Shown: positions 24,166 through 49,887, counted from the first letter of the stretch. The stretch: 64,000 bases of DNA from Candidatus Andersenbacteria bacterium RIFCSPHIGHO2_02_FULL_46_16 (GCA_001817065.1 MHHQ01000025.1:119777-183776); one strand, 5' to 3'. Made by a program: numbers and translations. The notes: generated from the sequence alone by a model not told the origin.

Positions 24166-24166
24166 A

Positions 24167-24843: not shown

Positions 24844-24904
24844 CCAAAATAAGTGATCCCGCCCTTGGCGGGACACGCATTTTGACAGAAAAACAATCCG
24901 CCGT
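24844..24904. repeat. Direct-repeat motif C copy 2
   Basis: ccaaaataagtgatcccgcccttggcgggacacgcattttgacagaaaaacaatccgccg. It contains the hairpin cccgcc-ctt-ggcggg. Confidence 0.55.
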
Positions 24905-25112: not shown

Positions 25113-26630
25113 TTATTTCGGATTTAAGAATTTATCACCACCCTCAGGCAGAGTCCCGCCCGAGGCGGAAGGATTTCGGATTTCACTATTCCCATTCACA
25201 CAAAAGAATTTCAAACCACGACATCCCTGCGGAACTTCCAGGTCGTTGCATGTACCTTCTTGTATCATCCGATAACTAACTAAATAATCAGCCTGGCTAG
25301 GGTCTTCTTCGCTCGCCACATCAAACCCTCTATTACCCCGGCTTAAATAGATCAATCTATTCCTGATATGAATGTCATCGGCATAAACCGTACCAGCTCC
25401 AGTCACACAATTCTCTAGCTCCTTTGTCTGCACTAAATCAGTTGCCTTGTTTGTTCGATTGCCTATAGAAAAATCATTATTGCTTCCACCTGTTTCCCGA
25501 TACACCCAGCCAACCTGCCAGACCATCCACCCTGTTAATAAACCAGCGATCACTACGGCCATTCGGTACGACCATTGTCTGTCTTCAAGCCATGACCTGA
25601 CTATTGACCACCATCCCCAACCAGCCATCGCCCATAGTGATAATACTAGAGGCACAAAATAACGCAGTGTAAATCGGTCAATCATAAACATTAATACTAT
25701 CAGCTGTCCTCCCATACCCAGAACCCAAGCCCAAGTTAATGGTTTTCGCCAATTCATCAACCACGCTATGCCAGCCAAGATCATCACTATGCCTGTTATT
25801 AATAACGTATCGCGACGTTTCAATTCAGCGCCGGTATAAGCCGCTATATAAGACGAACCAGACACTACCATTGGCATTAGTTGGGGTAAGGCTTTCCATC
25901 TCTCTTCCGCCGCGCTCGCCACCATTGTCAGATCGCCCTGGTCTTCCTTCATATTCATTAGCACTAACGCTTGACTGCCAAATCCAAACGTACCACCAAC
26001 TAGTACCATTATTGCTCCTAACACAAATTCCTTCGCTTTAATTTTCCTCTCTTTAATACGTGCCACCCCCATTACCACTACCCCCACCGCGATACCAGCT
26101 GCCGCTCCGGTAAATAGAATATGGTTACTTAACCCTAACCCACCGACTATTCCGACCCACCACCATTTAAATCGGCCTCTAGTAGCGACTATCGCGATAA
26201 TCAACAACGTAAAAAAGGGGATCAAGGTTATCGCCCAACCTAATCGTTGATATAAAATGTATGCTGGTGAGAACAAACCGGCCGCCACCGCTATCATCCC
26301 GCCGTGATCATCGCCGGCTTTTCCCGCTAAGCCGACCGCCAGCCAAAACAGTATTACTGAAAAGATAAACATCACCACCCTCAACGCCAGCGCATCATAA
26401 CCAAATATCAGCACAAACGGGATCCTCAAGTAATCAATTAACGGCCCGATATATGACCGCTCTCCAATTAGCACCAATCTTCCCGCCTGCTGTATCTGAT
26501 ACGAATTTTCTCCTTCTGACCCTTCGTCTCCCATTAATCCCGGCACCGATCCCAAGTAAGCTAAATTAACCGCTACAAATAGTATAAACAAAACCCACAC
26601 CCACTTTGATTGTCTGTGGAAGAAACTCAT
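25113..26630 (-). CDS. GT-C membrane glycosyltransferase (ArnT/GT39/GT83-like)
   Basis: About 13 TM segments. A GDEG motif lies in the first extracytoplasmic loop. The protein carries a C-terminal soluble domain. Confidence 0.55.
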   Translation of the reverse strand: MSFFHRQSKWVWVLFILFVAVNLAYLGSVPGLMGDEGSEGENSYQIQQAGRLVLIGERSYIGPLIDYLRIPFVLIFGYDALALRVVMFIFSVILFWLAVGLAGKAGDDHGGMIAVAAGLFSPAYILYQRLGWAITLIPFFTLLIIAIVATRGRFKWWWVGIVGGLGLSNHILFTGAAAGIAVGVVVMGVARIKERKIKAKEFVLGAIMVLVGGTFGFGSQALVLMNMKEDQGDLTMVASAAEERWKALPQLMPMVVSGSSYIAAYTGAELKRRDTLLITGIVMILAGIAWLMNWRKPLTWAWVLGMGGQLIVLMFMIDRFTLRYFVPLVLSLWAMAGWGWWSIVRSWLEDRQWSYRMAVVIAGLLTGWMVWQVGWVYRETGGSNNDFSIGNRTNKATDLVQTKELENCVTGAGTVYADDIHIRNRLIYLSRGNRGFDVASEEDPSQADYLVSYRMIQEGTCNDLEVPQGCRGLKFFCVNGNSEIRNPSASGGTLPEGGDKFLNPK

Positions 26631-26647: not shown

Positions 26648-28507
26648 TTACCTCACTAATTGTTTTTGCCACATCTTCAGGGCAATCAGCGTCCATAGTT
26701 TCTTGCGATTATCTGCCCGGCCACTTCGATGCTCCGCTAATAACTTCATAACTGCCTCTGTTTTAATAATTTCTTGTTCGCCTGGCTCACTTTTGATTAA
26801 TAGATCGCTAGCCCATCCGTATAATTCCCCTCTTAACCAATGTCCCAGCGGCATAGCAAACCCTTGCTTGCGCCGGTCAATTATACTATCTGGTATCCTG
26901 CCCCGCATTACTCGTTTCAACAGCCGCTTACCCTGCTTATGTTCCATCGGCAAACGCATGATAAATTCTGCCAAATCGACATCCAGAAAAGGTGTCCTAG
27001 CCTCCAAACCAAACGTCATCGCTGCCCGATCCAGTTTAACTAGAATATCATTTTGCATGTAGTCTGCGATTATTTGTCCAGACATACCATCAAACCAGTT
27101 TAGGTCGCTAAATATATGAGCACGTTCACTAACCTGACTCCACGCTTCTTCACTCAATACCACATACTCATCAGTCAGTAAACTCCGAAGTTCGCTGCTA
27201 TTAAATGATCCTAACCAGGCTTGTTGCCGCGCTGCCCTCTCTAAACCAATCCCACGTAAGAATGATTTTATTTTGAAATCAATCGTAAAATATTCATAGC
27301 TAGTAGGTAATTGCCGGCTCAGTATTGAAGCAAAGTTTCCCAGGACTTTTGGCAACTTTGGCAGTCTCTCCGCCCACACCGCCGCTTCAAACACGCCATA
27401 ACCGCCTAGCAGTTCATCGCTCCCATCTCCGTCTAAAACAACTTTTACTTGTTGGCTGGCCAATTCGCTCACCGCCCAGGTCGGCAGCAACGATGAATCG
27501 CCCAGCGGAATATCCATATCGCTTAAGTGCGCAAGGTAGCGCTTGAATTCCTTAATTCCAAATTCCCGATGGTTATGTTTAGTACCTAAAACACTGGCCG
27601 CCTGCTGAGCATAGCCAGCCTCGTTAAACGTATTCTCTATAAAACCAATGGAAAAAGAATGCAGTTCTGTCCCCTGAATCATTCTCATATACCAACCTAC
27701 CGCCGTCGAATCAATGCCTCCGCTCAGCAGTAATCCTACCGGCACATCCGCCACCAATCGCCGTTTCACCGCCTGCATCATCAAGTGGTCAAACTCCTCT
27801 GCCGCCTCATCCTCAGTCATTGACTTTTTCGGTAGAAAACTTAACCTCCACCATTGCTTGATTCGCATCCCCTGAGCATTAACTTCACCCCAACAGCCCA
27901 TCGGTAATTGTTTTATATCTTGCCAACCCGTCGCCGGCTCCGGCACATACTCATATATCAAATAACGTACTAGTGCTCTCTTATCCGCCGCCCTCTTAAC
28001 CAACGGATGTTCTATTAACGCTTTAATCTCCGAAGCGAACAAAAACACTCGTTTATTTTGCCAATAATAAAGTGGTTTTTTGCCAAAGGGGTCTCGCGCC
28101 AGCAATAACTGTTGCATGGTATTATCCCATAAAGCCAAGGCAAACATGCCTTTCACTTCCTGCAAAATTTCTGTGCCTCGCCTTGTCAATAAACTCAGCA
28201 ACACTTCTGTATCCGACGCAGATCTAAAAACCTGCCCACGGCAATATTTTTCGCGTAATTCGCGATAATTATATATTTCCCCGTTAAATACTATTTGATA
28301 TCGTCCGTCCTCTGACACCATGGGTTGCGCTCCTGCGGCCGTTAAGTCAATGATTGCCAGCCGCTGATGTCCCAGGCCAGCCGCTCCTTTCACCCATATT
28401 TTGTTGTCGTCGGGACCACGGTGCCTAATTTTACTGCTCATTTGCCTCAAGACATCAGCGTCCACCGGCTGTCCGTACCAATTAATAATTCCGACAATTC
28501 CGCACAT
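26648..28507 (-). CDS. asnB: Asparagine synthase (glutamine-hydrolysing)
   Basis: MCGIVGI Ntn-amidotransferase start, a conserved C-terminal synthetase domain and an SGGIDS PP-loop. Confidence 0.85.
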   Translation of the reverse strand: MCGIVGIINWYGQPVDADVLRQMSSKIRHRGPDDNKIWVKGAAGLGHQRLAIIDLTAAGAQPMVSEDGRYQIVFNGEIYNYRELREKYCRGQVFRSASDTEVLLSLLTRRGTEILQEVKGMFALALWDNTMQQLLLARDPFGKKPLYYWQNKRVFLFASEIKALIEHPLVKRAADKRALVRYLIYEYVPEPATGWQDIKQLPMGCWGEVNAQGMRIKQWWRLSFLPKKSMTEDEAAEEFDHLMMQAVKRRLVADVPVGLLLSGGIDSTAVGWYMRMIQGTELHSFSIGFIENTFNEAGYAQQAASVLGTKHNHREFGIKEFKRYLAHLSDMDIPLGDSSLLPTWAVSELASQQVKVVLDGDGSDELLGGYGVFEAAVWAERLPKLPKVLGNFASILSRQLPTSYEYFTIDFKIKSFLRGIGLERAARQQAWLGSFNSSELRSLLTDEYVVLSEEAWSQVSERAHIFSDLNWFDGMSGQIIADYMQNDILVKLDRAAMTFGLEARTPFLDVDLAEFIMRLPMEHKQGKRLLKRVMRGRIPDSIIDRRKQGFAMPLGHWLRGELYGWASDLLIKSEPGEQEIIKTEAVMKLLAEHRSGRADNRKKLWTLIALKMWQKQLVR

Positions 28508-28522: not shown

Positions 28523-29266
28523 CTAGATCGACAGTTTATTCAACAATCTGTTCGGTATACAAACAATCACCAGCATAATCCACCGCCAAAACCACGGCGT
28601 ATAGATCACTGTTTTTCTTTTATCAACCGCCCGAATGATGTCTCCTGCTACTTTTTCCGGTGTTGCCCACATCATGCCCTTCTGCTCAATCGCCGCTGTC
28701 ATTGGTGTTATTACATAGCCCGGTTTGACCGTTACTACTACTACGCCCTGGCCTGCCAAACGATGTCGCATACCTGCTGCCCATATGGCTAGTGCTCCCT
28801 TAGCTGCACCATAAGCATAGATAGTTTTACGCCCCCGGTCTCCTGCCACTGAGCTTATCGCGACAATCACGCCCTGCTTCCTTTCCGCCATGCCTTTGGC
28901 TACCAATTCCATAATCACAGCTGCTCCGGTAAAATTTGTCGTAATTATTTTTTCCGCCTCATCAGTACTGCTCTCCGCTAATTTTTGTTCCCCTAAATAA
29001 CCCTGTGCTACCAATAAAATATCTACGTGTCCCATTTTGTTCTGCACTTTCTCCTGCATGATCCCAATAGCCTCTATGTCAGTTAGATCAATCCCTAAAC
29101 TCCATACCGCTTTTGCTCCTTTAACCCTTAAGTCATTAGCTACCGCCTGTGCTTTTTTCTCTTCTTTATCAACAACAAAAATACTATAGCCGCGATTAGC
29201 CCAAATAATCGCTGCTTGTTGCGCGATCGCCGATCCGCCTCCGGTAATTAATACATTCTTACGCAT
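28523..29266 (-). CDS. DprE2-like short-chain dehydrogenase (decaprenylphospho-2-keto-ribose reductase family)
   Basis: SDR Rossmann motif ITGGGSAIAQ and catalytic YAYGAAK. The C-terminus IPNRLLNKLSI parallels the Mtb DprE2 ending IPRSIFRKLPI. The gene sits beside the DprE1-like gene. Confidence 0.65.
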   Translation of the reverse strand: MRKNVLITGGGSAIAQQAAIIWANRGYSIFVVDKEEKKAQAVANDLRVKGAKAVWSLGIDLTDIEAIGIMQEKVQNKMGHVDILLVAQGYLGEQKLAESSTDEAEKIITTNFTGAAVIMELVAKGMAERKQGVIVAISSVAGDRGRKTIYAYGAAKGALAIWAAGMRHRLAGQGVVVVTVKPGYVITPMTAAIEQKGMMWATPEKVAGDIIRAVDKRKTVIYTPWFWRWIMLVIVCIPNRLLNKLSI

Positions 29267-29292
29267 ATGCCACTCTGACTTATTTTATATTT

Positions 29293-30618
29293 TTACTTTA
29301 ATACACCCGTCACCCGTCGCCAAAAACTTGAGCTAATTTTTGGATCAATATATTCCTCAAATAACTCCCAGTTAGAAAAAGAAGATTTAAACGCCTGTGC
29401 CGACATCCGTCCGTCTTTAGACGGATTGACCGCTCCTCCGCTTTTCCATACTACTTCATCCAGTGTATCCAGCAGCTGCAAAGTCTCTGCGCTGGCATTA
29501 ATAAAATCAATGGCCAATACTAAGCCCGGTCGGGGAAAAGACATCAGTCCTGGCGATTTAATATCGCCAAAATATTTCAGTGTTGATAAAAACGATGCTC
29601 TGCCGGATTGCGCCACTTTAGTTAGAATTTCTTTAATGGCTGCTTCGCACCGATCTCGTGCTATCACTACCTGATATTGTAAAAATCCTGATCGGCCATA
29701 AACCAGATTCCAATTATTCACCACATCTAGCGGATAAAAGAATTTGTTGAAATGTACACAACGGCTAACTTTATCGCCCATACTTTTCCGATAGAACACT
29801 TCATTAAAAGCGCGCACGCTCCATTTGTTCATCAGGCCTGGTGGACCAGCTAACGGCCACTGGGCTTTAGCCCGGTACCAGCTATGCCACTCCGATAAAT
29901 CCACCGGCTTTACCGAGTGGTTTCCTCGCAGAAACAATCCACGTCCCAATTTTTTCCCCTGCGCTTGGCAATCCAGCCAGGCCACCGTGTAGTCGAAGTT
30001 CTTATCTGACTCCTCTGCCAAAATGAAAAAATCATCTATGCTATTCATCTTAATAACCTCCTCATCAATCAGGGGACTGACTACCTTTACCAACTTAATA
30101 TCTGCCCATAATATCACCCCCGTTAATCCCAGTCCGCCAATCGTCGCCTGGTATAACTCTGTGTTTTCTTCCTGTGAACAAATTAATTCTTCGCCCGTTG
30201 AGCGTAATAATCCCAATCGCGGAACGTGACATCCGAATGTTCCAGCCCAATGATGGTTCTTCCCGTGCACATCATTAGCAATAGCACCGCCCACCGTTAC
30301 ATGCTTAGTTCCCGGTGTGACTGGTAAAAACCATCCGTCGGGCAATGCTAGCTTCAATATGTCCGCCAGCGTAACACCAGCTTCACAAGTTACTGTCCCT
30401 GCCAACACATTCCAGTCCACGAAACGATTGAGCATTTGTACATCCAACAAAGTTCCCTGGTCATTAAGACATACATCTCCCTGGCTGCGCCCAGCCCCGC
30501 GCGGTAAAAAAACTCCTTCGTGCTGCAACAGATTCCTCGCCTCCTCCGGCCAATACACCTGCTTAACCTTTTGCTTAAAAGCTTTAGGATATCTTCCCCA
30601 GGACTGATATTCATTCAT
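29293..30618 (-). CDS. DprE1-like FAD-dependent oxidase (decaprenylphosphoryl-beta-D-ribose 2'-oxidase family)
   Basis: SWGRYP, RGAGRSQGD, TPGTKHVTVGGAIANDVHGKNHHWAGTFG and FLQYQVVI align block by block with M. tuberculosis DprE1. Confidence 0.75.
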   Translation of the reverse strand: MNEYQSWGRYPKAFKQKVKQVYWPEEARNLLQHEGVFLPRGAGRSQGDVCLNDQGTLLDVQMLNRFVDWNVLAGTVTCEAGVTLADILKLALPDGWFLPVTPGTKHVTVGGAIANDVHGKNHHWAGTFGCHVPRLGLLRSTGEELICSQEENTELYQATIGGLGLTGVILWADIKLVKVVSPLIDEEVIKMNSIDDFFILAEESDKNFDYTVAWLDCQAQGKKLGRGLFLRGNHSVKPVDLSEWHSWYRAKAQWPLAGPPGLMNKWSVRAFNEVFYRKSMGDKVSRCVHFNKFFYPLDVVNNWNLVYGRSGFLQYQVVIARDRCEAAIKEILTKVAQSGRASFLSTLKYFGDIKSPGLMSFPRPGLVLAIDFINASAETLQLLDTLDEVVWKSGGAVNPSKDGRMSAQAFKSSFSNWELFEEYIDPKISSSFWRRVTGVLK

Positions 30619-30619
30619 A

Positions 30620-32065
30620 CTATATTGCTAATAAAGCCAGCACTATCGTTAACCCAATTATCCAGTAATAAATAGGGTCTCTTATAATATACATGACTGG
30701 ATCATCACCTATCTTGCCACGATAGGCATTCAACCAGCCCCGGCTTACTCCATATAGCAATAGCAAAGCTACTAACCACCAGTATTCCGAATGCCTATAG
30801 AGTCTGGCGACCTGTGTACTATTTATGTATAAAGCCATCACCAATACCGCCAAAAATCCGCTCATTATGCCCATCTGTCCCACCAATGCCATATCAGCTC
30901 TCGCGTATCCTCGGCCCGACAAATTACCTTTTACCGCTAGTTCCTTCACTCGACTAAGCTCAACATATCGCTTCATCAAAGCTCCACTTAAAGCTAAAAA
31001 TAATATTAAGGCCATTAACCAATCGGATACAGCAATATTGGCCGCCGCGCCTCCCGCCATAATACGCAAACCGTATAAAACGGCCAATATAATTACATCC
31101 AACAAGACAATCTGCTTTGCCCCTAGTGAGTATATTAAATTAAGCAAGAAATAAGTTATCACCATTTTTACAAATAGTCCATCTAGACCCGCCGCAATGA
31201 TTGCTCCAGTTCCTAACAACACTATTACCATTGCTGTGCCTTGCCAAAGCGACAGCTCGCCTGAGGCTAATGGCCGATATCTTTTAGTCGGATGACGCCT
31301 ATCCGCCTCCAGATCCAACATGTCATTGATTAGATAGATGGCTGATGCAATCAAGCAGAACACCACAAACGCCCTGCCCGCTTTCACACCGACTATCCAA
31401 TTCAGCTGATGATCCGCTAGCATAGGAATCAACAGTAATAAATTTTTTACCCACTGGTGGGGACGTATAGCCGCCCACATCGCTTTCAGCGCCGACCTCT
31501 TACTTCGCCACACCTTTCCCACTAACGTTGTCTTCGCGACTATCCGCCTTAGCCGATCGCTGTTCGTTACCGCATGTGCGGTGCCGGCTTTTTCCCACAC
31601 CGCCAGGTCCTTTCGGCTGTTGCCAATATAATCGAAACCTCTTAGCCCGAATTTATTTACCAGCGCTGTTGCTTTATTCCTGCCGGACAGATTGACCCCT
31701 TCTTCCGTCCCCATCACTCCTTCAAATATTTGTAAATGTTCGGCCACTTGCCTAGCTATGCGACTATCGCTAGCTGTCACCAACCATAGCTTTCTGCCAG
31801 CGATTCTTTGCGTCGTCAAGTAATCCAGTACAGCCAAGTGATATGGCAACGTCGCGACATTAATCTGCGCTTGTCCGACCAGCCGTCCTTTAAAATAAGC
31901 TAAGCCTTTTCTCAGCCACCAAGCGCTCTTGAATACCCCACTCGCATCGCGCTTGGCCAGTCTCAGCCACAGCTCGAATAAGGTATCTGTTTTTACTAGC
32001 GTGCCGTCCAGGTCGACGGCAATCGGTCGGCCTTTATTTTCCACCTTCTGCGCATCAAAAACCAT
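30620..32065 (-). CDS. Fusion protein: an N-terminal HAD-family phosphatase domain plus a C-terminal UbiA-family polyprenyl-phosphate phosphoribosyltransferase (Rv3806c-like)
   Basis: HAD motif I VDLDGTLV. UbiA motif INDMLDLEADRRHPTKRYRPLASG followed by about 7 TM helices. The gene is co-operonic with the DprE1/DprE2-like genes. Confidence 0.65.
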   Translation of the reverse strand: MVFDAQKVENKGRPIAVDLDGTLVKTDTLFELWLRLAKRDASGVFKSAWWLRKGLAYFKGRLVGQAQINVATLPYHLAVLDYLTTQRIAGRKLWLVTASDSRIARQVAEHLQIFEGVMGTEEGVNLSGRNKATALVNKFGLRGFDYIGNSRKDLAVWEKAGTAHAVTNSDRLRRIVAKTTLVGKVWRSKRSALKAMWAAIRPHQWVKNLLLLIPMLADHQLNWIVGVKAGRAFVVFCLIASAIYLINDMLDLEADRRHPTKRYRPLASGELSLWQGTAMVIVLLGTGAIIAAGLDGLFVKMVITYFLLNLIYSLGAKQIVLLDVIILAVLYGLRIMAGGAAANIAVSDWLMALILFLALSGALMKRYVELSRVKELAVKGNLSGRGYARADMALVGQMGIMSGFLAVLVMALYINSTQVARLYRHSEYWWLVALLLLYGVSRGWLNAYRGKIGDDPVMYIIRDPIYYWIIGLTIVLALLAI

Positions 32066-32985
32066 ATCAAAGCCACTAATACCAGACCAAACACGCCCAC
32101 TGCTGCCATTCGAATGATTGTTGTTGCTTTAAATTTATACTGTTTTTCTTCATCATTTGTAACTGGTGCCGGTGTGGGCTCAATTTTCACCAAGGCGTTT
32201 TCTGTTCTAGTAAACATGAGTGCTTGGCTAGCTGCTAATGTTCTACCATCAGTACTAACTGCTGCAGCATAAATTTTGTAATCACCTATGTCAAGCGTGT
32301 CACCGCTCACATAAGTAAAGCGCCCTGTTTTGTCTGTCCTGGTCACCCATAACTTTGGCTGATTGCCCATGACCAATAAAGCTATCAAACTATAATTAGG
32401 TCCGGTGCCAGTAATCGTTAACTGTTCATTTTCTCCGCTGTCCCCCAACCTCATACCCGTTATCTGATAACGATTATCATTTGCTTGGGTCGGTTCTGTG
32501 TACTCAATTTTGTCGTTCGGAGATGCCAGCAGCGGATTATAACCTCGCACCACCTCAATACCATCCGCATATGTATCACCATCGGTATCAGGATTACTGG
32601 CATTCGTAATCAACATAATCTCATCACTATCGCTCAAACCGTCCTGATCTCGATCTAGGCTCGCTTCTAGCAGTGGAAAAGGCAAGTCAGCGGTGTTAAC
32701 ACTGGGCAAGGCTGAGACTTGCGGCAACACCGACTCAACCACATTTCTACTCTCCATTAATTGCTGCACTAAGTTAGGATTCCCTGCTCGCTGCGCTTCC
32801 TCTAATGCTCTTTGATAACTCTCCATCAAATCAGCACTCGTCCCCGCTTCTTCGCCCGGTACCGCCACCGTTTGCTGATCAGCCCCAGGCTCAATTGCAT
32901 CATGTACATCAAAATCTTCATTCGCCCATACTGCAAGACCAGCTATTAACCCTCCGCTGATTAGCACTGTTATTAACTTTCTCAT
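31996..32985 (-). CDS. Secreted, C-terminally membrane-anchored protein with Ca-binding Asp-rich repeats (dockerin or thrombospondin-type-3-like) and a Pro/Thr linker
   Basis: Signal peptide MRKLITVLISGGLIAGLAVWA. Repeats DQDGLSDSDEI...DTDGDTYADGIEV. PTPAPVT linker, followed by a TM helix and an RRRWK tail. Confidence 0.5.
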   Translation of the reverse strand: MRKLITVLISGGLIAGLAVWANEDFDVHDAIEPGADQQTVAVPGEEAGTSADLMESYQRALEEAQRAGNPNLVQQLMESRNVVESVLPQVSALPSVNTADLPFPLLEASLDRDQDGLSDSDEIMLITNASNPDTDGDTYADGIEVVRGYNPLLASPNDKIEYTEPTQANDNRYQITGMRLGDSGENEQLTITGTGPNYSLIALLVMGNQPKLWVTRTDKTGRFTYVSGDTLDIGDYKIYAAAVSTDGRTLAASQALMFTRTENALVKIEPTPAPVTNDEEKQYKFKATTIIRMAAVGVFGLVLVALIWFLMRRRWKIKADRLPSTWTAR

Positions 32986-33025
32986 ACTTTCATTATGTCT
33001 CGGAAAAACAATCCCGCCAAATGAC

Positions 33026-35167
33026 TTACTGCGATTGTGTAAATCGATAAGCTATATCATAACCTTCGCGGCGAAATTGACTATTACTCGCCCTCTCTCC
33101 CAATGCCTCGTGGCGCCACGCCATCTGTCCCACCAATATGTCCACTGGCGAGAATAGCACGGTTATTGCATCACCCGGTTTTGCCATCGGACTGGTCAGA
33201 GAAATAAAGTATTCTTCCCCGTCGCTATTATTAAGTGACGCAAAATCAAACCGGTGCCACTCCATGTCCTCAATCTGATCAGCCGCCACTTTCATTGTTC
33301 TAATATCGGTATTGTCATTAATATCCTTCCGGATATGTAGCATAACGTCCTGTGTGTTATTCCGGCCGCTGAAATTTGCTAGGCCAATCTCAATACTTTG
33401 CCAATTGGCTGGTGCCGTGATTAACTGACCCACTTCCATATCACCATAAAGCTCTCCGGTATTATTAGTAAAATATTTAAGCCCGATCACGTTATAAATC
33501 CACACGTATTCTTTCCCGGTTATTCTTATCACATGTTCCGGCACTTTATCCGCCAACTCTTTCAATACATTAGAAGCTAGCTCATCCTCGCCTCTTCCAT
33601 ACATGTTGCGATATGTTACAACATAGCCCACCCGGTCATCATGCCGGGAGCTTAAACTCATCGTTTTTCCTTGGAAATAAGTCCTCATAACTCCCGGATA
33701 CCAAGAAGCAACCGTCAGCCGATTCCCCAACGTCCGTTCGTTTAACCATAACGCTGCCGCATCCAAACCCTCTCCCCATCCTTGCGAACTTAACGCTCTA
33801 ATATCAAACATTGGACTATTGTAAGCAATACTATAGGGTATCCAACCGACCACCTGAATCAGCAACGCTACTACCACCAAACCCATCACCGTTCTTCGCC
33901 ACATAATTTTCTGCCAAGTTGCAATCGTTTTCTTTATAGCCTGATCAGCTACACTAAGCCCCAGGGCAGCCAATACTGGCAACACCACCAATGCCGGCAA
34001 TGCATATCTATCCGCTTTTTTGGCCATCAAGGAAATTACCACAAGGTAACCGATAATATATGCTATCAGCCATCCCAGCACTCGGATAAACACAACACTA
34101 TCAGACCCTTTTACTCCATCATGCCTGCCCAGCCGTCCGACCACATGACGCCAAATTAACTCCTGTCCATAAAACCTGATCCAACCTACTATCATTCCCA
34201 AGCCAATCAACAAAACAAATGGCGATGTTCGCCCTAATACCACGCGGACATAGAAACCCAGTGCCTCAATCGGCTCCTCCGACTGCTCTAGCGTCACGTG
34301 CTCCTGTGTTGCCACCGACACAACATCCCGTGCATAATAATCAGCCAAATTTGTCTTTACCCACAGTGCCGGCCAGACCAAGTAAAAAGTTAGTACGGCG
34401 ATCCCTACGTAGAATAAAAATTGGCGACTGACCGTTTTAATTTGCTCACCTAGTATACGCCAATCAATGTGCCTTATAGCAGGAACAAACCAACCATACT
34501 GTCCTTTTATAATCCCGGCACTGACAAGTAATAACCAAAGACCTGGTAATAATTTAGTCCCCCATGCAAACCCGGTCATTATTCCAGCTATCACTAACCA
34601 GCGCCATTTCAAATTTTCTGTAAAAATCAGTAATCCCAGCATGGCGGATAACATAAATAACGCCAGCAGCATATCGACATGAACTATTTGACTCATACCG
34701 ACTAGATACGGCTCCACGGCCAATAACACGCCCGCCCACGTTCCTACGAAACTGCCCATCAATCTCGTCACTAAATAAGTTATCAGACCAATCAATAAAG
34801 ATACGCCTAAGACCATCGGCCAAGTACTAGCCATGCGAAATGCAGCCAAATTAGACGTATCTACTCCCGTCCCCATTCTCTTTTCTTGCGCGTAAATACC
34901 AGCCCCAGCCAGCCACTGTGTTGTTGCCCCCGGATGAGTCGTGGTAAATGTTCCGCCCGGATCATTTTTTTCCAATAACTTATGATAAAATTCACCGCTC
35001 CTCGTCATCCATAGCTCCTCGTCTACCGTCATAAATGATCCCACGCCATAAAGGCGCAATACCACTGTTAAAAATACTACTCCCCAAACTATCCTGACCG
35101 GCTTTTTTGCGGCCAACTTCTGCTCATTCCCCCGATTACCACTGCTTATCGCACGAATTGTGTTCAT
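33026..35167 (-). CDS. Glycosyltransferase family 39 (PMT/ArnT-like) membrane protein
   Basis: VDEELW...HPGATTQWLAG and AKKADRYALP motifs shared with the paralogs at 18015 and 20744. Confidence 0.7.
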   Translation of the reverse strand: MNTIRAISSGNRGNEQKLAAKKPVRIVWGVVFLTVVLRLYGVGSFMTVDEELWMTRSGEFYHKLLEKNDPGGTFTTTHPGATTQWLAGAGIYAQEKRMGTGVDTSNLAAFRMASTWPMVLGVSLLIGLITYLVTRLMGSFVGTWAGVLLAVEPYLVGMSQIVHVDMLLALFMLSAMLGLLIFTENLKWRWLVIAGIMTGFAWGTKLLPGLWLLLVSAGIIKGQYGWFVPAIRHIDWRILGEQIKTVSRQFLFYVGIAVLTFYLVWPALWVKTNLADYYARDVVSVATQEHVTLEQSEEPIEALGFYVRVVLGRTSPFVLLIGLGMIVGWIRFYGQELIWRHVVGRLGRHDGVKGSDSVVFIRVLGWLIAYIIGYLVVISLMAKKADRYALPALVVLPVLAALGLSVADQAIKKTIATWQKIMWRRTVMGLVVVALLIQVVGWIPYSIAYNSPMFDIRALSSQGWGEGLDAAALWLNERTLGNRLTVASWYPGVMRTYFQGKTMSLSSRHDDRVGYVVTYRNMYGRGEDELASNVLKELADKVPEHVIRITGKEYVWIYNVIGLKYFTNNTGELYGDMEVGQLITAPANWQSIEIGLANFSGRNNTQDVMLHIRKDINDNTDIRTMKVAADQIEDMEWHRFDFASLNNSDGEEYFISLTSPMAKPGDAITVLFSPVDILVGQMAWRHEALGERASNSQFRREGYDIAYRFTQSQ

Positions 35168-35173
35168 CCCTCG

Positions 35174-37849
35174 TTATCTCTTACGCCGGTAGTAAGTCAT
35201 AGTGTTTGATCCGTTCTCTATACCTTTAACGGCCTGCCAATTCCTGGCTAACCCCGCCTCAATTTCCTCATATTCCATCAAAAACGAGAATCCTGTTTGC
35301 TGCTCTAGTAATAACCATTCAGCATCGCGGTATGCTTGCAGCATTTCTTCTACCGTCGGCAAAAATGCATTCAGCCTGGCCGTATCTGTACGCGTAAATC
35401 CGTACGCATACCAACGCGGATGAGCGATATCGAGCGATACCTCATGTCCTGATAAAAATGGTATAGCCGCTGCACCAGTAAATATCGGCTCATCTATTGG
35501 TATATTCTGTTTTGCCCAATTTGCCGCCTCTTGTAGAGATGTCAGCTGGAATGTTCCCGTATGTTCATGCACGTAAGTTACATAATTCGCCACAAATAAT
35601 GACCATCCCAGTACCCCGATAAATCCCAGTGCTAATGTCCTCTGGCTTACTTTATTAACTATTGCACTATGGCTGCCTTGTCCTTGTGTTAATCTTCGCC
35701 ATCCTTCCGGTATTGCTAAACCTGCGATAATCACCAACGGCGGCAGAAACTCGCCGATATAATTAGCATGAAATTTTATCCAGTTATGATAGAAAAAGAC
35801 TAGTCCAACCACCCATACGAATGGCAATAACCAGCCCAGGAGATTCCAGCGTCCCTCTGATTTTAGCTGGTTACCAAGCCTATCGATCTTCCCCGCCGCC
35901 AATCCGTCCGCCAGGGTACCTCGATATTCTAATAATTCTTCCTTGCCCAACCTCTCCGTGTCATCTTTATTATTTCTTATTTTTTCATTTTTATTCTCTC
36001 TAACTCCAGACGGCCAGGCAGCCATAAATACAATTACTAATAACATCGCCCACCATAAGCGATACATGCCGAACACCATTATGCTGCTGCCTTCATACTC
36101 TTGAAAAAACGACCACGCCCAGCTATATACCATTACCGGTATAATCCAGAATAGTTTTTGCACGACGTTCTGTCGCCAGCCTAATCCACCCTGCCACCAT
36201 TCCATTTGACCAACTAGAGAACTTGCCAATCGCTCTCCCGCGAAACCCAAACCTAGCACAGCTAACATGATTAAAGGCAGGGACTCCCGGAAAAATGGCG
36301 TCATTCCTCGTATCGAATAGGCTCGCACTTGTTCCCGTTCGGATTCTTCTACGGCGGTAATACTATCCTCCACTGAATTAAATCCAGTTGCTTCCCATAA
36401 CCCAGCCTGACCATAAATTAACATTGCAACGCCTAAAAAAACTGCTAATACGATCACAAACCCCGCACCGACTAATAATAAACTCTGGATTTTTTGTCGT
36501 CCCGTCTTACTGCCAATCAATATTACCAATAATGGCACTAAACCTGTGGCTAGAATGCTTTTGCGCGATACCACCCCTAATCCCAACAATGCCCCCGCCG
36601 CTATTAACCACGCCTTGCCTGTTACCCTGTATTTTCTTTCCATACTCACCTGGCTCACGTACATATCCCTAGTTCCCAGCAGCAAAGCAGCTATTCCAGA
36701 CACGGCAAAGAAAATCGCTAGCGACTGTGTATGCACGTATATATTAAACACTACCGTTACACCCAGCAGCGCCCAGGTCGTAGCAACCGATAGTCCGACT
36801 TTTTTACTCCATAATTCTCGGCCAATAATATACATCGGCCACATCGTCATTGCGCCAATCACCACCGACGACAAGCGTCCCACAAAAATTGATGTGCCGC
36901 CCAACCATTCCCATAGCGCAATCCACAAAACTACTAACGGTGCTTTAACATACCCATCTCCGCCCGCCAATTTACCTTTAAGCAGCGTAGCCGCATCGTA
37001 TAAATAATTTCCCTCATCATTAGTCAGCGGCAGCTCCATCGCATATAAAATTCTAGCGACTAGTGCCAGCACAAACAATGTCACCAACCATCTCGCCACC
37101 TGCCAACGCGATTTAGCGCTTACCGCTTTACTCTTAATGCCTACGGTCACTGCCAAACAAATCCCCACCAGGAGCAGGGACTGCATAGCCACCCGTCCCC
37201 ACAAACCATAAGTCGCCCTGGCTTCATACCAGGTCTCTCTAAAATACTGCACTGCCCGCCAGCCTTCACTTCCCCATGCCACATACAATGGCACCTTATA
37301 TGCTGTGCCAAAAGCTAGGTCCATTTTCACTTTACCTCCTCTGGCCAGCTCTGTATCAGATATTTCCCCTGTCATTCCCCGCCAAATATAAGCGGAGCCG
37401 CGATGATAAGGATCCCTGTTATCAACGTCCACTGTCACCGCTTTTCCAGGCATCCCGTCTGGTAATTCTAGTAAAACAATAAATGTTATATCCTTGGCTT
37501 GCTCCACCGGATCAAAATTAAACTGGTACATTTGATTATCTCCAAGCTCTCTAGTACTTACCTCCACTTCACGTAAAATTTCTGACAGCTTATCCAACCG
37601 ACGCAAAGTAAACTTTACTTGTCCGGTATTCCCCCGCCCAGAATAAGTAGCGAACATTACCAAGACACTGGATAAATTATCACGCTCGCCCACAAAAGTT
37701 TGCCCCACCACCACTCCACCCAACATTTCCCCCGCATTCGCGGTATATCTCTCCGCCTGATATCCTTCTAATTCCGTAGTACCCAGCCATACCACCATCC
37801 CCAGCACCGCCAGCACACCGATCATCAGGCTGATGAAACCAATTTTCAT
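35174..37849 (-). CDS. Large GT-C-type membrane glycosyltransferase (ArnT-like) with an N-terminal extracytoplasmic domain
   Basis: The ORF is 891 aa. A NDEGNY motif precedes a multi-TM core. Confidence 0.5.
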   Translation of the reverse strand: MKIGFISLMIGVLAVLGMVVWLGTTELEGYQAERYTANAGEMLGGVVVGQTFVGERDNLSSVLVMFATYSGRGNTGQVKFTLRRLDKLSEILREVEVSTRELGDNQMYQFNFDPVEQAKDITFIVLLELPDGMPGKAVTVDVDNRDPYHRGSAYIWRGMTGEISDTELARGGKVKMDLAFGTAYKVPLYVAWGSEGWRAVQYFRETWYEARATYGLWGRVAMQSLLLVGICLAVTVGIKSKAVSAKSRWQVARWLVTLFVLALVARILYAMELPLTNDEGNYLYDAATLLKGKLAGGDGYVKAPLVVLWIALWEWLGGTSIFVGRLSSVVIGAMTMWPMYIIGRELWSKKVGLSVATTWALLGVTVVFNIYVHTQSLAIFFAVSGIAALLLGTRDMYVSQVSMERKYRVTGKAWLIAAGALLGLGVVSRKSILATGLVPLLVILIGSKTGRQKIQSLLLVGAGFVIVLAVFLGVAMLIYGQAGLWEATGFNSVEDSITAVEESEREQVRAYSIRGMTPFFRESLPLIMLAVLGLGFAGERLASSLVGQMEWWQGGLGWRQNVVQKLFWIIPVMVYSWAWSFFQEYEGSSIMVFGMYRLWWAMLLVIVFMAAWPSGVRENKNEKIRNNKDDTERLGKEELLEYRGTLADGLAAGKIDRLGNQLKSEGRWNLLGWLLPFVWVVGLVFFYHNWIKFHANYIGEFLPPLVIIAGLAIPEGWRRLTQGQGSHSAIVNKVSQRTLALGFIGVLGWSLFVANYVTYVHEHTGTFQLTSLQEAANWAKQNIPIDEPIFTGAAAIPFLSGHEVSLDIAHPRWYAYGFTRTDTARLNAFLPTVEEMLQAYRDAEWLLLEQQTGFSFLMEYEEIEAGLARNWQAVKGIENGSNTMTYYRRKR

Positions 37850-37893: not shown

Positions 37894-38880
37894 CTACCAA
37901 TATTCGTTCTTATTCTGCCGATAAAAAGCTACTGTTCGTCTTAACCCTTCTTCCAGAGATACCCCCGGTTCCCAATGAGTCACCTGTTTGATTTTAGCAG
38001 TATCGGCCACATAATCACCCGTTTCATTTTTTTCATAATCCTCCGGCCATGGCACAGACTCTTTTTCTCCCTGACCCACCGCCTCAATTACCGCATCTAC
38101 CATCTCCGTAAAAGTAATTCCCCGACCGCTGCCGATGTTATATGCCTCACCATCTTGGCCTGCTACTATTAGTCGCATCATCGCCTCAACAATATCATCA
38201 ATATAAATGTAATCTCTTAGCTGATTGCCATCACCGTAAATCTGAATCTTCTTTCCTTCCATCGCTTGCCGGATGAACCATCCGACAATCGCATATTTGC
38301 TGTGTTTCATTTGCTGTCTCGGTCCGTATGGATTAGGTATCCGCAGCGACATGCCATGCACCCCGAAGTTATGCGCGTAATAAGCGTAATATTTTTCCCC
38401 TAATAATTTGTGAATTCCATACAACGACAATGGTTGCGTCTCATGACTTTCTTTAACCGGCACTTCCTTAATTTTTCCGTATACCATGCGCGATGAAGAA
38501 AATAAGATTCGCGCTCCAGGGGCTTGCTCTTTGACTGCCTCCAGTACAATCAAATTTCCCCGCCCATTAAAGTCCAAATCAACAAAAGGTTTTTCCTTGG
38601 CATCTAAATAACCCACCTGACCTGCTAAATGAAAAATAAAGTCCTTTCCTCGCACTGTTTCAGTCACTGTCTCCTCGTCCGTAATATTGCCGTTCACTAA
38701 TTCAACCCGATCTTCGATCTCTTTGATATTAAATTTATTGCCTCCGTAGGGTGTCAGTAATGCATCTAATATACTCACCCGCGCTCCTACCTCCACCAGC
38801 CGATGTGTTAATGTACTGCCTATAAACCCCAAGCCGCCCGTGACAAGAACTTTCTTACCACCAAAATCTCTTTTAAACAT
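37894..38880 (-). CDS. NAD-dependent epimerase/dehydratase (GalE/UXS-like SDR)
   Basis: VLVTGGLGFIGSTL, the SSSRMVYG...YGIHK catalytic region, and NPYGPRQ. Confidence 0.7.
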   Translation of the reverse strand: MFKRDFGGKKVLVTGGLGFIGSTLTHRLVEVGARVSILDALLTPYGGNKFNIKEIEDRVELVNGNITDEETVTETVRGKDFIFHLAGQVGYLDAKEKPFVDLDFNGRGNLIVLEAVKEQAPGARILFSSSRMVYGKIKEVPVKESHETQPLSLYGIHKLLGEKYYAYYAHNFGVHGMSLRIPNPYGPRQQMKHSKYAIVGWFIRQAMEGKKIQIYGDGNQLRDYIYIDDIVEAMMRLIVAGQDGEAYNIGSGRGITFTEMVDAVIEAVGQGEKESVPWPEDYEKNETGDYVADTAKIKQVTHWEPGVSLEEGLRRTVAFYRQNKNEYW

Positions 38881-38935: not shown

Positions 38936-40087
38936 TCATTGCTTTAAGCCCTTGTCATATTTCAAATACAGCTCATTATACTGTCGCATAATCTCTGCCC
39001 AATTGTATTGCTTGGCCATTTCCCTGCTCCTCTGGCCCATCTCGCTGCGCAAATTCTCATCATCGATCAATTGAACTAGGTCATTCGCTAATTTACTGCT
39101 ATCGTCCCCCCTGATTAAATAACCGTTCCAGCCATCACTTACCAACTCATTATTTCCTCCCACATCACTGGCCACTACCGGTAAACCACAACCCATCGCC
39201 TCCAGAATGACTGATGGCATCCCTTCTGACAACGAGGTCAACACAAATATATCTGCTTGCTGATAGGATTTTTCCAGTTCGTCATATGGCACAGTTCCGA
39301 CATACTTTATTTGCTCAGCTACCCCTAATGCCTGAGCGACATCATCCAACTTTTTACGATGCTCACCGCTGCCCACCACCTCAACCTCGAACGCCTCATG
39401 TACTTTCTTTTGCACTTCCGGTAAAGATCGGATCACCCTTTCAAAACCTTTACGCGGGATTAAACGGCCTATGAATAATACTTTTACCTTTTTGTTTCTA
39501 GGCCGCTCTACGGGCTTAAACCGATCCCATTCAACCCCATTTGGGATAACCACGAACTCGCTCGTGGGATCCACTATCTTACCTAGCCTTGCTAACTCTT
39601 CCGAACAAACCGTTCTAAACTTTGCCCTTTGCCAAATTGCTCGGAGCAGCGGCGTTATCAAGGGATAAATCCTTTTATACCGCGACAAATTAGCGCCGGG
39701 TAAATCAGACCCGCCGAAATAGACGGCGTACGGTATGCCTCGCACCATGTTCAGCATCCAGGCCACCCAGCCAGCCGGTACAGCAAAATATGCTTGGACA
39801 AAATCAACCCGGTGACGACCAGTAAAAATTAAACTGTATATCAGTGCAGACAAACCAAACGTCACCAGCTCCCATTGCGCACAAAAATCCTTATAACGCC
39901 TGATGGCCGGTATGCGAATTACGAGCGCCCCTTCCACCTGCTCCCGTTTCGGTAAATCGCGATACTGCGAAGTAATTAATGTCACCTCGTGGCCCGCCTG
40001 CACCAAATATCTTATCGCGTATTTAGTGACTGTAGACCCACCCCCGCCGATCGGCGGAAATTCATTGTTTATCAGCAGCAGTTTCAT
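38936..40087 (-). CDS. Glycosyltransferase family 4
   Basis: E(x7)E region SEGMPSVILEAMGCGLPVVASDVGG. Confidence 0.75.
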   Translation of the reverse strand: MKLLLINNEFPPIGGGGSTVTKYAIRYLVQAGHEVTLITSQYRDLPKREQVEGALVIRIPAIRRYKDFCAQWELVTFGLSALIYSLIFTGRHRVDFVQAYFAVPAGWVAWMLNMVRGIPYAVYFGGSDLPGANLSRYKRIYPLITPLLRAIWQRAKFRTVCSEELARLGKIVDPTSEFVVIPNGVEWDRFKPVERPRNKKVKVLFIGRLIPRKGFERVIRSLPEVQKKVHEAFEVEVVGSGEHRKKLDDVAQALGVAEQIKYVGTVPYDELEKSYQQADIFVLTSLSEGMPSVILEAMGCGLPVVASDVGGNNELVSDGWNGYLIRGDDSSKLANDLVQLIDDENLRSEMGQRSREMAKQYNWAEIMRQYNELYLKYDKGLKQ

Positions 40088-40173: not shown

Positions 40174-41136
40174 CTATATTTTATCCCACCCTATTGTCTC
40201 CTTTATACTGTAAGCTTTCTTCTGCGCATAATACGTTTTGGCCACCACGTCAGCCAGCACACCAGTCAATAAAAACTGAAAACCTAGTAGCACGAGCAAC
40301 ACCGCTAACAACGGCAAGGAGCTATTTGCAAAACCGGTAATCTTCAGTAACCAGATGATTAATATTGAACTGCCCAATATAAAACCAGCGAAGATAAAGC
40401 CTATCCCGATTGCCCCGAAAAAATGCATCGGCCGCGCTGCGTACTGCACCCAGAATTTAACCACGATTAAATCAAGAAATCCTTTCAACTTCTTCTTCAC
40501 CGAGTAATTTGTTCGACCATGTTCCCTCGGATAATGGTTAACCTCTAATTCTCCAACCCTAAATCCTTTCCAAGACAGTAACGCTGTTATATAACGATGC
40601 ATCTCACCATACAACTCTAGGTCTATCAGCACCTCCCGCCGATATATTTTCAAGCTGCATCCATGATCATGGATTTTTTCGGCCGTCATCCATCGGTGCA
40701 CCACGTTGCCAATTTTGCTCAGCAACACCATACCGCCATTATCCTGACGATGCCGGCGCCAGCCTGATACCACATCTAAATCCTTGCCAAGCAGATGCTT
40801 CATCATCGCTGGGATATCCTTAGGATCATTCTGTAAATCAGCATCCATCACAATGACAAATTCGCCCTGGACACGATCAAATCCAGCCGACCACGCTGCT
40901 GTCTGTCCAAAGTTTCGTCTGAATTCAATCATCTTTACACACTGGTCCTTCTGCACGAGCTCCCTCATTATTTTATTAGTATCGTCATCGCTGCCGTCAT
41001 CAATAAAGATGATCTCCCACCCGCCATCCATCTGATCCATGACTTCTTTAGTCGCTTGATACAACGACCGCAAATTATCCTGTTCGTTATGGGCAGGAAT
41101 CACTAATGAATATTTCATATTATCTGCAGTATACAC
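40174..41136 (-). CDS. GT2 polyprenyl-phosphate glycosyltransferase (DPM1/ArnC/GtrB-like)
   Basis: SLVIPAHNE...IFIDDGSDD...VVMDADLQ DXD motifs and two C-terminal TM helices. Confidence 0.75.
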   Translation of the reverse strand: MYTADNMKYSLVIPAHNEQDNLRSLYQATKEVMDQMDGGWEIIFIDDGSDDDTNKIMRELVQKDQCVKMIEFRRNFGQTAAWSAGFDRVQGEFVIVMDADLQNDPKDIPAMMKHLLGKDLDVVSGWRRHRQDNGGMVLLSKIGNVVHRWMTAEKIHDHGCSLKIYRREVLIDLELYGEMHRYITALLSWKGFRVGELEVNHYPREHGRTNYSVKKKLKGFLDLIVVKFWVQYAARPMHFFGAIGIGFIFAGFILGSSILIIWLLKITGFANSSLPLLAVLLVLLGFQFLLTGVLADVVAKTYYAQKKAYSIKETIGWDKI

Positions 41137-41388
41137 TACTAAAAATAGATTAAGGACACACTGTAAACCTTATTAATAGCCATGTCAAGCCATAGTCTTG
41201 TGCAGGGCAATCGCATTGAATTGAGGGCTCAAATAGGGCTGCGAAAGCAAAGGGGTGATTTTCGTCCTGCTCAGAAAATAAGCAAACTTGCTCCGATTGG
41301 TCCCTAAGCCATTAATTGCAGTGCGATTGCCCTGTAGTCTTGTGAGATCGTACGTTCATACTTATTTACAATTTTACGTAATATAAAA

Positions 41389-41587
41389 ACATCACATCAT
41401 GAAATGTCACTGCAGAATAAGCGGGTGGCGGCGCGGGGGTCCCCCACCGAGCGCCAGCAGCCCTGAGCTTGTCGAAGGGCGATGCCGTCGGGTGGGGGAG
41501 CAGCGCCGACAGGCCTGCCAGCCGCAGCCATAGCGAAGGCTGGACCCGTTTTTTGTCTGGTGACTTTTCATGATGTGACACCTATAG
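41389..41587. repeat. Repeat family A copy 3
   Basis: Its roughly 160-nt core is the exact reverse complement of copy 4. Confidence 0.85.
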
Positions 41588-41686
41588 TAATAGTAATTAT
41601 TGCTTAAAAAAAACTCCTCGTAGAATTAAATCTATTAAGGAGCACAATGCGCCCTGAAAAAAATTCGTGACCAACAACATCTTGTA

Positions 41687-49870: not shown

Positions 49871-49887
49871 AATAACTAATACAAGTA

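Follow-up and report, generated by a model that had tools for sequence, protein, structure and literature searches.

We analysed a 64,000-nucleotide (nt) stretch of the genome of Candidatus Andersenbacteria bacterium RIFCSPHIGHO2_02_FULL_46_16 (GCA_001817065.1, MHHQ01000025.1:119777-183776; hereafter the window, with positions counted from its first letter) and found in it three adjacent minus-strand genes encoding a HAD phosphatase domain fused to a UbiA-type domain (the fusion), a DprE1-like oxidase and a DprE2-like short-chain dehydrogenase/reductase (SDR). Together these genes (28523-32065) probably make polyprenyl-phosphate-beta-D-arabinofuranose at the cytoplasmic face of the membrane, a reading to which we assign a probability of roughly 0.8. 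The host belongs to a group of ultra-small bacteria of the Candidate Phyla Radiation (CPR) that are thought to live on other cells. Sequence comparison and structure prediction gave us the direct evidence: the families to which the proteins belong, their intact catalytic residues, the order and tight packing of the genes, and their conservation. The experimental basis comes from elsewhere, namely the activity of ORF15 of Citrobacter youngae and the chemistry of DprE1 and DprE2.

In the pathway we propose, the UbiA half of the fusion would transfer phosphoribosyl onto a polyprenyl-phosphate carrier, the fused HAD half would remove the 5'-phosphate, the DprE1-like flavoenzyme would oxidise C2', and the DprE2-like SDR would reduce the resulting 2'-ketone, giving the arabino configuration. 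A putative flippase would then carry the donor across the membrane, where a membrane glycosyltransferase of fold type C (GT-C) would attach arabinofuranose (Araf) to a surface glycan or glycoprotein for which the other genes of an 11-gene operon, together with the glycan island around it, are responsible. We infer which sugar is made and on which carrier lipid, and likewise the flippase, the acting GT-C and the acceptor. An initial annotation of this DNA had seen in the three genes the decaprenyl-phospho-arabinose (DPA) pathway of mycobacteria; homology to characterised enzymes supports a DPA-type pathway (phosphoribosyl transfer, 5'-dephosphorylation and 2'-epimerisation), and the "decaprenyl" part of the label is not supported, nothing in the sequence pointing to a particular lipid carrier.

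Catalytic features of the three enzymes

The fusion scored 527.2 bits against the NCBIfam model NF006088/PRK08238 (cutoff 351), with its residues 7-481 aligned to profile positions 6-480 of 482; this family carries the bland name "UbiA family prenyltransferase". Models of decaprenyl-phosphate phosphoribosyltransferase (DPPRS) gave 128-148 bits, whereas those of quinone, haem, chlorophyll and archaeal-lipid prenyltransferases gave at most 47. The closest solved relative was Mycobacterium tuberculosis Rv3806c (8j8j, E-value 2.8e-31), the motif of which is intact in the fusion as NDxxDxEADRxHPxKRxRPxAxG (general form NDxxDxxxDRxHPxKRxRPxAxG). The structural match and the DPPRS scores bear out the likeness to Rv3806c that had been proposed for the UbiA domain, which did not fall among the MenA/UbiA quinone clades. 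When 16 diverse fusions (41-68% identity) were aligned, the residues of HAD motifs I, III and IV (D18, D20, K131, D153) were invariant, so that the catalytic Asp residues are present, and T97 of motif II was at least 90% conserved; also invariant were the residues of the polyprenyl-phosphate phosphoribosyltransferase (PPPRS) domain, N247, D248, D251 and D255 in loop II and R366 and E369 in loop IV. An AlphaFold2 model of the fusion (pLDDT 86.5) agreed with this division, its C-terminal half matching 8j8j by Foldseek (E-value 2.5e-11, target-normalised TM-score 0.81) and its N-terminal half resembling SerB-type HAD phosphatases. The start of the fusion is uncertain, as one database entry begins seven residues later, at a Val codon.

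This one-polypeptide architecture, which the initial annotation had taken to be novel, turned out to be that of a curated family (NF006088/PRK08238) with a prototype characterised biochemically in 2024. Kelly et al. (PNAS 2024; PMC11127046) described C. youngae ORF15 as an N-terminal HAD "phosphoribose phosphatase" (PRP) joined to a UbiA-type PPPRS. Membranes with ORF15 converted farnesyl-phosphate and phosphoribosyl pyrophosphate (PRPP) to farnesyl-phosphate-ribofuranose, a D18A variant built up the 5-phosphate intermediate, and activity needed N247, D248, D251 and D255 (PMC11127046). The numbers of the functional ORF15 residues (D18, N247, D248, D251, D255, R366 and E369) coincide with invariant positions here, and it is by residue number and motif that we equate the two proteins; by analogy we infer that the fusion makes polyprenyl-phosphate-ribofuranose in a PRPP-dependent manner. 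With its catalytic residues intact, the HAD domain may well stand in for the separate mycobacterial phosphatase Rv3807c, as had been suggested, the same replacement having been demonstrated in ORF15 (PMC11127046).

The DprE1-like oxidase scored 339.8 bits against the DprE1 equivalog model NF053785, below the cutoff of 500 and ~295 bits above the next-best family, the sugar-lactone oxidases (45 bits). Its match in the Protein Data Bank (PDB) to M. smegmatis DprE1 (4aut) had an E-value of 2.1e-67 with 36.5% identity over 386 columns; other matches were to cytokinin dehydrogenase (4e-10, ~57 orders of magnitude weaker) and xylitol oxidase (2e-5). Both HGKNHH at 118-123 and K401 (in PSKDGR) align with the M. 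smegmatis enzyme, and we take this segment and the Lys, equivalent to K418 of M. tuberculosis, to be DprE1 active-site residues. At the position of Cys387, the target of benzothiazinones (BTZ) in DprE1, the oxidase has Ala369; this Cys is dispensable for catalysis. By these scores and motifs the oxidase is a DprE1-clade homologue, not the NCBI-defined equivalog, which upholds the DprE1-like identity and conserved blocks first noted for it and places it outside clades such as GulLO/ALO.

The SDR narrowly passed the cutoff of NF005489/PRK07102 (268.6 bits, cutoff 267), and its second-best family was the DprE2 equivalog NF053786 (147.6 bits, below the cutoff of 250). DprE2 itself (21gq_C) was the sole PDB match under 1e-20 (E-value 7.8e-23), in an alignment that runs through the C-terminal tail; the hydrophobic tail of the SDR (225-245) aligns with the DprE2 C-terminus, confirming the conserved C-terminus reported earlier. 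Its SDR motifs are TGGGSAIA at 8-15, S138/S139 and Y152xxxK156.

Relatives of these proteins are labelled "4-hydroxybenzoate polyprenyltransferase" or "FAD/FMN-containing dehydrogenase" in databases, as would fit a quinone or aromatic prenyltransferase and a sugar-lactone or alditol oxidase whose likeness to DPA enzymes is superficial. These labels are automatic, however, and the UbiA protein scored at most 47 bits with UbiA/MenA-type models against 128-527, the oxidase at most 45 with lactone-oxidase models against 340. The PDB ranking concurs, and with the HAD catalytic Asp residues present we consider the quinone and lactone-oxidase reading refuted, any probability left to it being minute.

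The module in other genomes and its variation within the lineage

The three genes are colinear (fusion, DprE1-like, DprE2-like) with gaps of 1-26 nt, the oxidase and SDR genes being 26 nt apart. Among 49 informative loci (those with at least 2.3 kb of sequence downstream of the fusion) the trio occurs in the same order in 26, of which three belong to CPR relatives and 23 are unrelated loci (that of Aquabacterium and 22 from metagenomes); no other setting of the fusion is as frequent in metagenomes. The CPR relatives hold it as a unit at 49-75% identity, and cultured Aquabacterium fontiphilum (locus L005) has a colinear trio at 45, 44 and 41% identity; such environmental trios (PRK08238, DprE1-like, PRK07102) share genes and order with the window but not its GT-C enzymes. 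The adjacency of DprE1- and DprE2-like genes is repeated in loci L001, L002, L005 and L091 and in 22 metagenome loci, and Aggregatilinea lenta also has the pair as adjacent genes. DprE1-like proteins are highly abundant (at least 7,999, from 8,000 candidates scored, at an E-value of 1e-30 or better), and the closest non-CPR relatives of the oxidase, among the matches listed, were 52-56% identical and came from Chloroflexi, Calditrichia and Magnetococcales. Loci for Araf glycans in Stenotrophomonas maltophilia and Rathayibacter contain DprE1/E2 homologues, and xylofuranose (Xylf) is produced via a different SDR epimerase (PMC11127046). The statement in the initial annotation that Pseudomonas aeruginosa Pa5196 and Azorhizobium were the only precedents therefore fails, given the trios of A. 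fontiphilum and the 22 metagenome loci, the Stenotrophomonas and Rathayibacter homologues, and the abundance of DprE1-like proteins in Chloroflexi. A search of the literature library for this pathway in CPR/Patescibacteria found no report; the gene architecture being already known, what is new here is the host lineage and the evidence of module swapping within it.

More than 1,800 relatives of the fusion were found in the protein collection, with named hosts in Verrucomicrobia, Deltaproteobacteria, Methylococcaceae and Aquabacterium, and at least 583 confirmed relatives on metagenome contigs. Identity was 40-41% to other Andersenbacteria fusions and 44-45% to proteobacterial fusions, and a neighbour-joining tree of 66 fusions was star-like, with two CPR groups near each other; we considered a horizontal-transfer origin of the cassette and make no claim of one. 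The redox partners of the fusion vary by locus and include a GMC oxidoreductase with an SDR, a single SDR epimerase or a Gfo/Idh/MocA oxidoreductase (loci with other partners are L006 9469-12391, L007 9509-10537, L016 6045-7355, L088 13335-14375 and L090 8892-12171), and this variety suggests further pentofuranose variants beyond ribose, arabinose and xylose. An amine-oxidase-like flavoprotein recurs in nine DprE1/E2 loci.

Within the lineage, L001 (69% identity in the fusion) and L002 and L003 (55%) have the entire block in common with the window, including the gene for a 329-residue surface protein. Where the contig reaches them, more distant Andersenbacteria-type loci have the operon's family 2 and family 4 glycosyltransferases (GT2 and GT4) and its epimerase at 59-71% identity and its large GT-C pair, GTC891 and GTC713, at 43-47%; the third GT-C of the operon, GTC505, is usually kept in them (38-43%). 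In L088 and L090 the fusion (41%) directly follows the GTC713 orthologue and is paired with a 346-residue SDR epimerase, with a Gfo/Idh/MocA oxidoreductase in addition in L090, and neither locus has DprE1/E2 or the surface protein. We found no fusion gene at the locus (within 7-10 kb) in L089, L092 and L093, of which L092 and L093 keep the GT-C pair, GT2, GT4 and epimerase and L089 keeps only the GT-C enzymes. Three cassette states thus occur at one fixed position of the locus: none; the fusion with an SDR epimerase; and the surface protein with the fusion and DprE1/E2.

Judged by the gene content of these loci, the pentose-donor module is a variable, swappable accessory of a conserved glycan locus, and therefore no GT-C travels with the module and the surface protein alone travels with DprE1/E2, its gene being the only one in the lineage that co-varies with them and being confined to loci that hold them. 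The O1 and O2 serotypes of C. youngae follow a similar logic. A bolder view would have serotype-like swapping of donor cassettes, the lineage-specific PMT-like GT-Cs as a new family of arabinofuranosyltransferases that needs no dedicated flippase, and the 329-residue protein as their specific acceptor or accessory; we put it forward tentatively and consider it rather unlikely as a whole.

Candidate transferases, flippase and acceptor

All GT-C enzymes of the operon have in common an acidic D-E pair just past the first transmembrane (TM) helix. The family of GTC713 is nearly restricted to Andersenbacteria and other Patescibacteria (124 matches); its profile reached yeast Pmt2 (5e-8), another PMT (2.6e-7) and ArnT (3e-7), and its predicted fold was nearest to protein O-mannosyltransferases, with ArnT, ALG and Aft enzymes scoring nearly as well. 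None of the three operon GT-C enzymes had a direct sequence match to solved arabinosyltransferases or structures, a PDB sequence search with GTC891 gave no match, and no relationship to Emb (EmbA/B/C) or Aft (AftA, AftB, AftD) proteins was detectable by sequence, including with the GTC713 profile. Each of the seven CPR relatives has an orthologue of GTC891 (43-66% identity), whether or not it has the pentose module, and six of the seven have one of GTC505 (38-62%), again irrespective of the module. We rejected GTC505 as a module-specific transferase because L002 has the module but not this GT-C, whereas loci that lack the module do have it.

Several observations weigh against the pathway we propose. 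The DprE1- and DprE2-like proteins score under their equivalog cutoffs, and therefore the exact substrate and product are extrapolated. No GT-C co-varies with the pentose module among related loci, and relatives of the window's GT-C enzymes were not found by BLAST beside the trio in other phyla. Lenient Pfam searches with the membrane open reading frames (ORFs) of the 64-kb window found no flippase of the GtrA, ArnE/F-like (EamA/SMR), MATE or PF03706 type.

The initial annotation had proposed the large GT-C pair as candidate arabinosyltransferases. Large GT-C enzymes are indeed present, but a dedicated role is weakened: because orthologues persist in relatives whose locus has no pentose module, the pair would not be dedicated arabinosyltransferases. 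The donor module may thus be real while the pair (33026-37849) uses the polyprenyl-phosphate-hexose of the operon's GT2, with Araf transferred by another GT-C (GTC505 or one of at least six further GT-Cs in the window) or, promiscuously, by a member of the pair, an arrangement to which we give slightly less than an even chance. Orthologues of the pair in L089, L092 and L093, none with a fusion within 7-10 kb, favour it, as does the ArnC/GtrB-like GT2 with its two TM helices, a classic GT-C partner; the C. youngae GT-C, which takes two different pentose donors (PMC11127046), is a precedent for promiscuity. However, every fusion-bearing locus of the lineage has the fusion right behind the GTC713 orthologue (with a 1-11 nt overlap in L088 and L090), genomes without the module at this locus could hold it elsewhere, and two GT-C enzymes are not obviously needed for one GT2 product.

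The module might instead arabinosylate protein, with a PMT-like GT-C acting on the surface protein or on pilins, as TfpW does in Pa5196. GTC713 is nearest to protein O-mannosyltransferases in both profile and predicted fold, the 329-residue surface protein alone appears and disappears together with DprE1/E2, and TfpW offers a known case of protein-bound Araf, with a GT-C possibly doubling as flippase. Yet a PMT-like fold does not reveal what kind of acceptor is used, the scores of ArnT, ALG and Aft enzymes being nearly as good, and the co-variation is based on three related loci only. The surface protein has just one short Pro/Thr stretch, and the surrounding island, with rhamnose and heptose pathways, many GT4s and a MurJ-like flippase, resembles polysaccharide synthesis; overall we think protein arabinosylation improbable.

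The initial annotation had described this surface protein as a secreted Pro/Thr-linker protein and a candidate substrate; it is predicted to be secreted and anchored, and the linker amounts to a single seven-residue stretch (269-275). Pfam and PDB searches with it gave nothing informative, and TSP3_bac gave a faint match in the L002 orthologue. Its gene overlaps that of the fusion by 70 nt in a different frame (31996-32065), with an overlap of 52-58 nt in L001 and L002.

As to the putative flippase of our proposed pathway, hidden Markov models (HMMs) built from the GtrA neighbours of other trio loci also found no match in six-frame translations of the window, and its sole MOP-type protein, of the MurJ type, lies 17 kb away. 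A GtrA-family protein is often encoded at trio loci elsewhere (10 of 27), as is a PF03706 membrane domain, either adjacent to the UbiA gene or as part of the same protein. Many fusion relatives of ~790-820 residues (e.g., P0016, P0026, P0033 and P0045) bear such an extra PF03706 domain (LPG_synthase_TM, MprF-flippase-like), and in the Aquabacterium locus L005 a separate PF03706 gene (7020-7988) lies directly upstream of the fusion; the domain is a plausible candidate for a polyprenyl-phosphate-pentose flippase. P. aeruginosa can do in part without its GtrA-like gene, and there TfpW has been suggested as the translocator of the donor. The missing dedicated flippase gene is therefore not fatal to the model; by analogy, a shared or partly dispensable flippase may explain why none was found here. 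At 2213-4019 the window encodes a 478-residue protein (~10 TM helices) and an overlapping 131-residue protein (four TM helices), neither with a Pfam match even at E=5; set among dTDP-sugar genes, they could be a polymerase, a ligase or a small transporter. We did not adopt the 131-residue ORF (3624-4019) as the flippase, as it could be assigned to no family and is 25 kb distant.

Operon setting and comparison with known systems

The six minus-strand ORFs named in the initial annotation are all present at exactly the coordinates it gave, but the extent assigned to them was too short, the unit being a tightly packed operon of 11 genes (41136 to 25113) with intergenic distances of -70 to 86 nt (Table 1). 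It is transcribed in the order GT2, GT4, epimerase/dehydratase, GTC891, GTC713, surface protein, fusion, DprE1-like oxidase, DprE2-like SDR, AsnB-like protein and GTC505; because the whole block is transcribed on the minus strand, the GT-C pair lies upstream of the trio and not downstream of it, as had been written.

Table 1. Predicted features of the operon in order of transcription (positions in the window; aa, residues)
Feature	Position	Strand	Length (aa)	Characteristics	Match or remark
Promoter-like site	41160..41188	minus		TTGACA-17-TACAGT	immediately 5' of first operon gene (GT2)
GT2, predicted polyprenyl-phosphate sugar synthase	40174..41136	minus		ArnC/GtrB/PgfS-like; two C-terminal TM helices	Pfam Glycos_transf_2, E 4.4e-33
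GT4, predicted cytoplasmic (Leloir-type) glycosyltransferase	38936..40087	minus			Pfam Glycos_transf_1, E 4.3e-44; 67-72% identity in six relatives
Predicted NDP-sugar epimerase/dehydratase	37894..38880	minus		extended SDR	Pfam Epimerase, E 8.4e-53; RmlB-like TIGR01181, 186 bits, under cutoff
GTC891, GT-C-like membrane glycosyltransferase	35174..37849	minus	891	~13 TM helices; N-terminal extracytoplasmic domain; NDEG at 277-280	PMT_2, 24.7 bits (cutoff 26.1)
GTC713, PMT/ArnT-like GT-C	33026..35167	minus	713	invariant D49-E50 after TM1; C-terminal beta-sandwich like a carbohydrate-binding module (CBM)	
Surface protein	31996..32985	minus	329	signal peptide; two TSP3-like acidic repeats (111-142); beta-rich region; EPTPAPV; C-terminal TM anchor	
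Fusion, predicted bifunctional HAD phosphatase (~13-190) and UbiA-type polyprenyl-phosphate 5-phosphoribosyltransferase (~195-481)	30620..32065	minus	481		NF006088
DprE1-like FAD-dependent oxidase, predicted polyprenyl-phosphate-ribose 2'-oxidase	29293..30618	minus	441		NF053785
DprE2-like SDR, predicted 2'-keto reductase	28523..29266	minus	247		NF005489 (PRK07102)
AsnB-like glutamine-dependent amidotransferase	26648..28507	minus			Pfam Asn_synthase, E 5e-84, and GATase_6/7; found in L001, L002, L088
GTC505, GT-C-like membrane protein	25113..26630	minus	505	~8-10 TM helices; GDEG at 34-37	PMT_2, 23.5 bits (cutoff 26.1); last operon gene
Terminator-like hairpin	24856..24874	minus		8 pairs (6 G-C), T-rich tail	directly 3' of last operon gene

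The promoter-like site is a consensus match only, the count of such sites in the region not exceeding shuffled expectation. The GT2 scored 166 bits with the ArnC-type NF007986 and 146 bits with PgfS, both under cutoff, and is 65-88% identical in CPR relatives; from these similarities its product would be another lipid-linked donor, the second of the operon. We dropped a specific link of the AsnB-like gene to the pentose pathway because the gene is also in L088, which lacks DprE1/E2. The window is ~45% GC with a strong negative GC skew, and the region lies inside a long run of minus-strand genes; a composition scan found the GC content to be even across the window, and Rfam and tRNA scans of the window gave no matches. 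Several operon proteins are identical or 99% identical in metagenome-assembled genomes (MAGs) of Candidatus Andersenbacteria from the Rifle aquifer (the RIFCSPHIGHO2_12_FULL series; Parcubacteria group GW2011_GWA2_45_14).

Outside the operon, positions 8511-22204 are unusually rich in GT-C-like membrane proteins. Among them are two TPR-tailed paralogues that are 42% identical (13748-15760 and 15705-17876), and the proteins encoded at 18015-20099 and 20744-22204 are PMT-like and paralogous to GTC713; this stretch also encodes a YfhO-like protein (10966-13740) and a 16-TM protein without a family (8511-10973). Sugar-nucleotide supply genes lie upstream of the operon (42058-52320) and include dTDP-rhamnose genes (RmlA, 42058-42930; RmlD, 47902-48789; RmlC-like, 51808-52320), an NDP-heptose-type set (cytidylyltransferase-like, 44978-45496; HAD phosphatase, 45605-46186; PfkB kinase, 46207-47259; SIS isomerase, 47289-47861), a transaldolase (49001-49870) and a split transketolase (49888-50850 and 50884-51702); the last two could feed ribose-5-phosphate and sedoheptulose-7-phosphate. 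A GC-rich palindromic intergenic element of ~200 nt, similar to a miniature inverted-repeat transposable element (MITE), is present in three copies (23158-23335, 41378-41588 and 44344-44548) with ~40-nt terminal inverted repeats (TATAGACATCACATCATGAAA...). Two copies (41392-41588 and 44344-44540), 98% complementary and in opposite orientation, flank rmlA and an SDR epimerase gene (42058-44246). The predicted folding energy of one copy is -97 kcal/mol (z = -6.7), the element had no match in Rfam, and it generates spurious identical 54-residue ORFs. A second, short direct repeat of 73 nt (86% identity) follows the operon at 24154-24226 and 24831-24903, the latter copy containing the terminator-like hairpin (24874-24856).

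The nearest known counterpart is the three-component system of C. youngae O1/O2, where ORF15 has the same one-polypeptide HAD(PRP)-UbiA(PPPRS) design at a similar length and places a PRPP-derived donor on polyprenyl-phosphate (PMC11127046). There the pentofuranose on display depends on an epimerase cassette that may or may not be present, and the cassette is likewise variable here; its GT-C (ORF12) is ArnT/PMT-like with a C-terminal CBM-like beta-sandwich, as is GTC713, which adjoins the module. The two systems differ in that the C. youngae epimerase is a single SDR (ORF13, for Xylf) and here a DprE1/DprE2 pair (for Araf), in that C. youngae has a small ArnE/F-like flippase gene, of which none was detected here, and in that the prototype transferase is GT136, whereas the GT-C family here is almost confined to Andersenbacteria. 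C. youngae is moreover an enterobacterium making O antigen, whereas the host here is a CPR bacterium, presumably with a single membrane.

The DPA pathway of mycobacteria (Rv3806c, Rv3807c, DprE1, DprE2 and Rv3789, with Emb/Aft enzymes) has the same chemistry as that predicted here at the four cytoplasmic steps, and its enzymes were the best solved-structure matches of all three trio proteins (28-37% identity). It differs in having a separate phosphatase, Rv3807c, in place of a fused HAD domain, a BTZ-target Cys in place of Ala, and the GtrA-family Rv3789, of which no homologue was detected here. P. aeruginosa Pa5196/PA7 (PsPA7_6246-6249 and TfpW) provides a non-actinobacterial set of Rv3806c, DprE1 and DprE2 homologues feeding an extracytoplasmic GT-C. 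Its PPPRS is without the HAD domain (PMC11127046) that is fused here, it has a GtrA-like gene (PsPA7_6247), of which we detected none, and its acceptor pilin is encoded beside tfpW, whereas none of the genes in the operon here was recognised as encoding a pilin.

What is known of the synthesis of lipid-linked arabinofuranose is left unchanged by these results, the fusion and the non-mycobacterial DprE1/E2 pairing having already been described. The labels "UbiA family prenyltransferase" (PRK08238) and "FAD-binding oxidoreductase" hide the pathway in thousands of genomes, and the unclassified GT-C enzymes described here are supplied as a set for testing. The value of the finding is modest and lies in taxonomy: a genome of the CPR/Patescibacteria would have a complete module for the Araf donor, and it is in this very module that close relatives differ. 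Next to nothing is known of the cell-surface chemistry of CPR bacteria, which presumably governs host attachment and phage exposure; our reading predicts that some Andersenbacteria would carry D-Araf on their surface and others a different pentofuranose.

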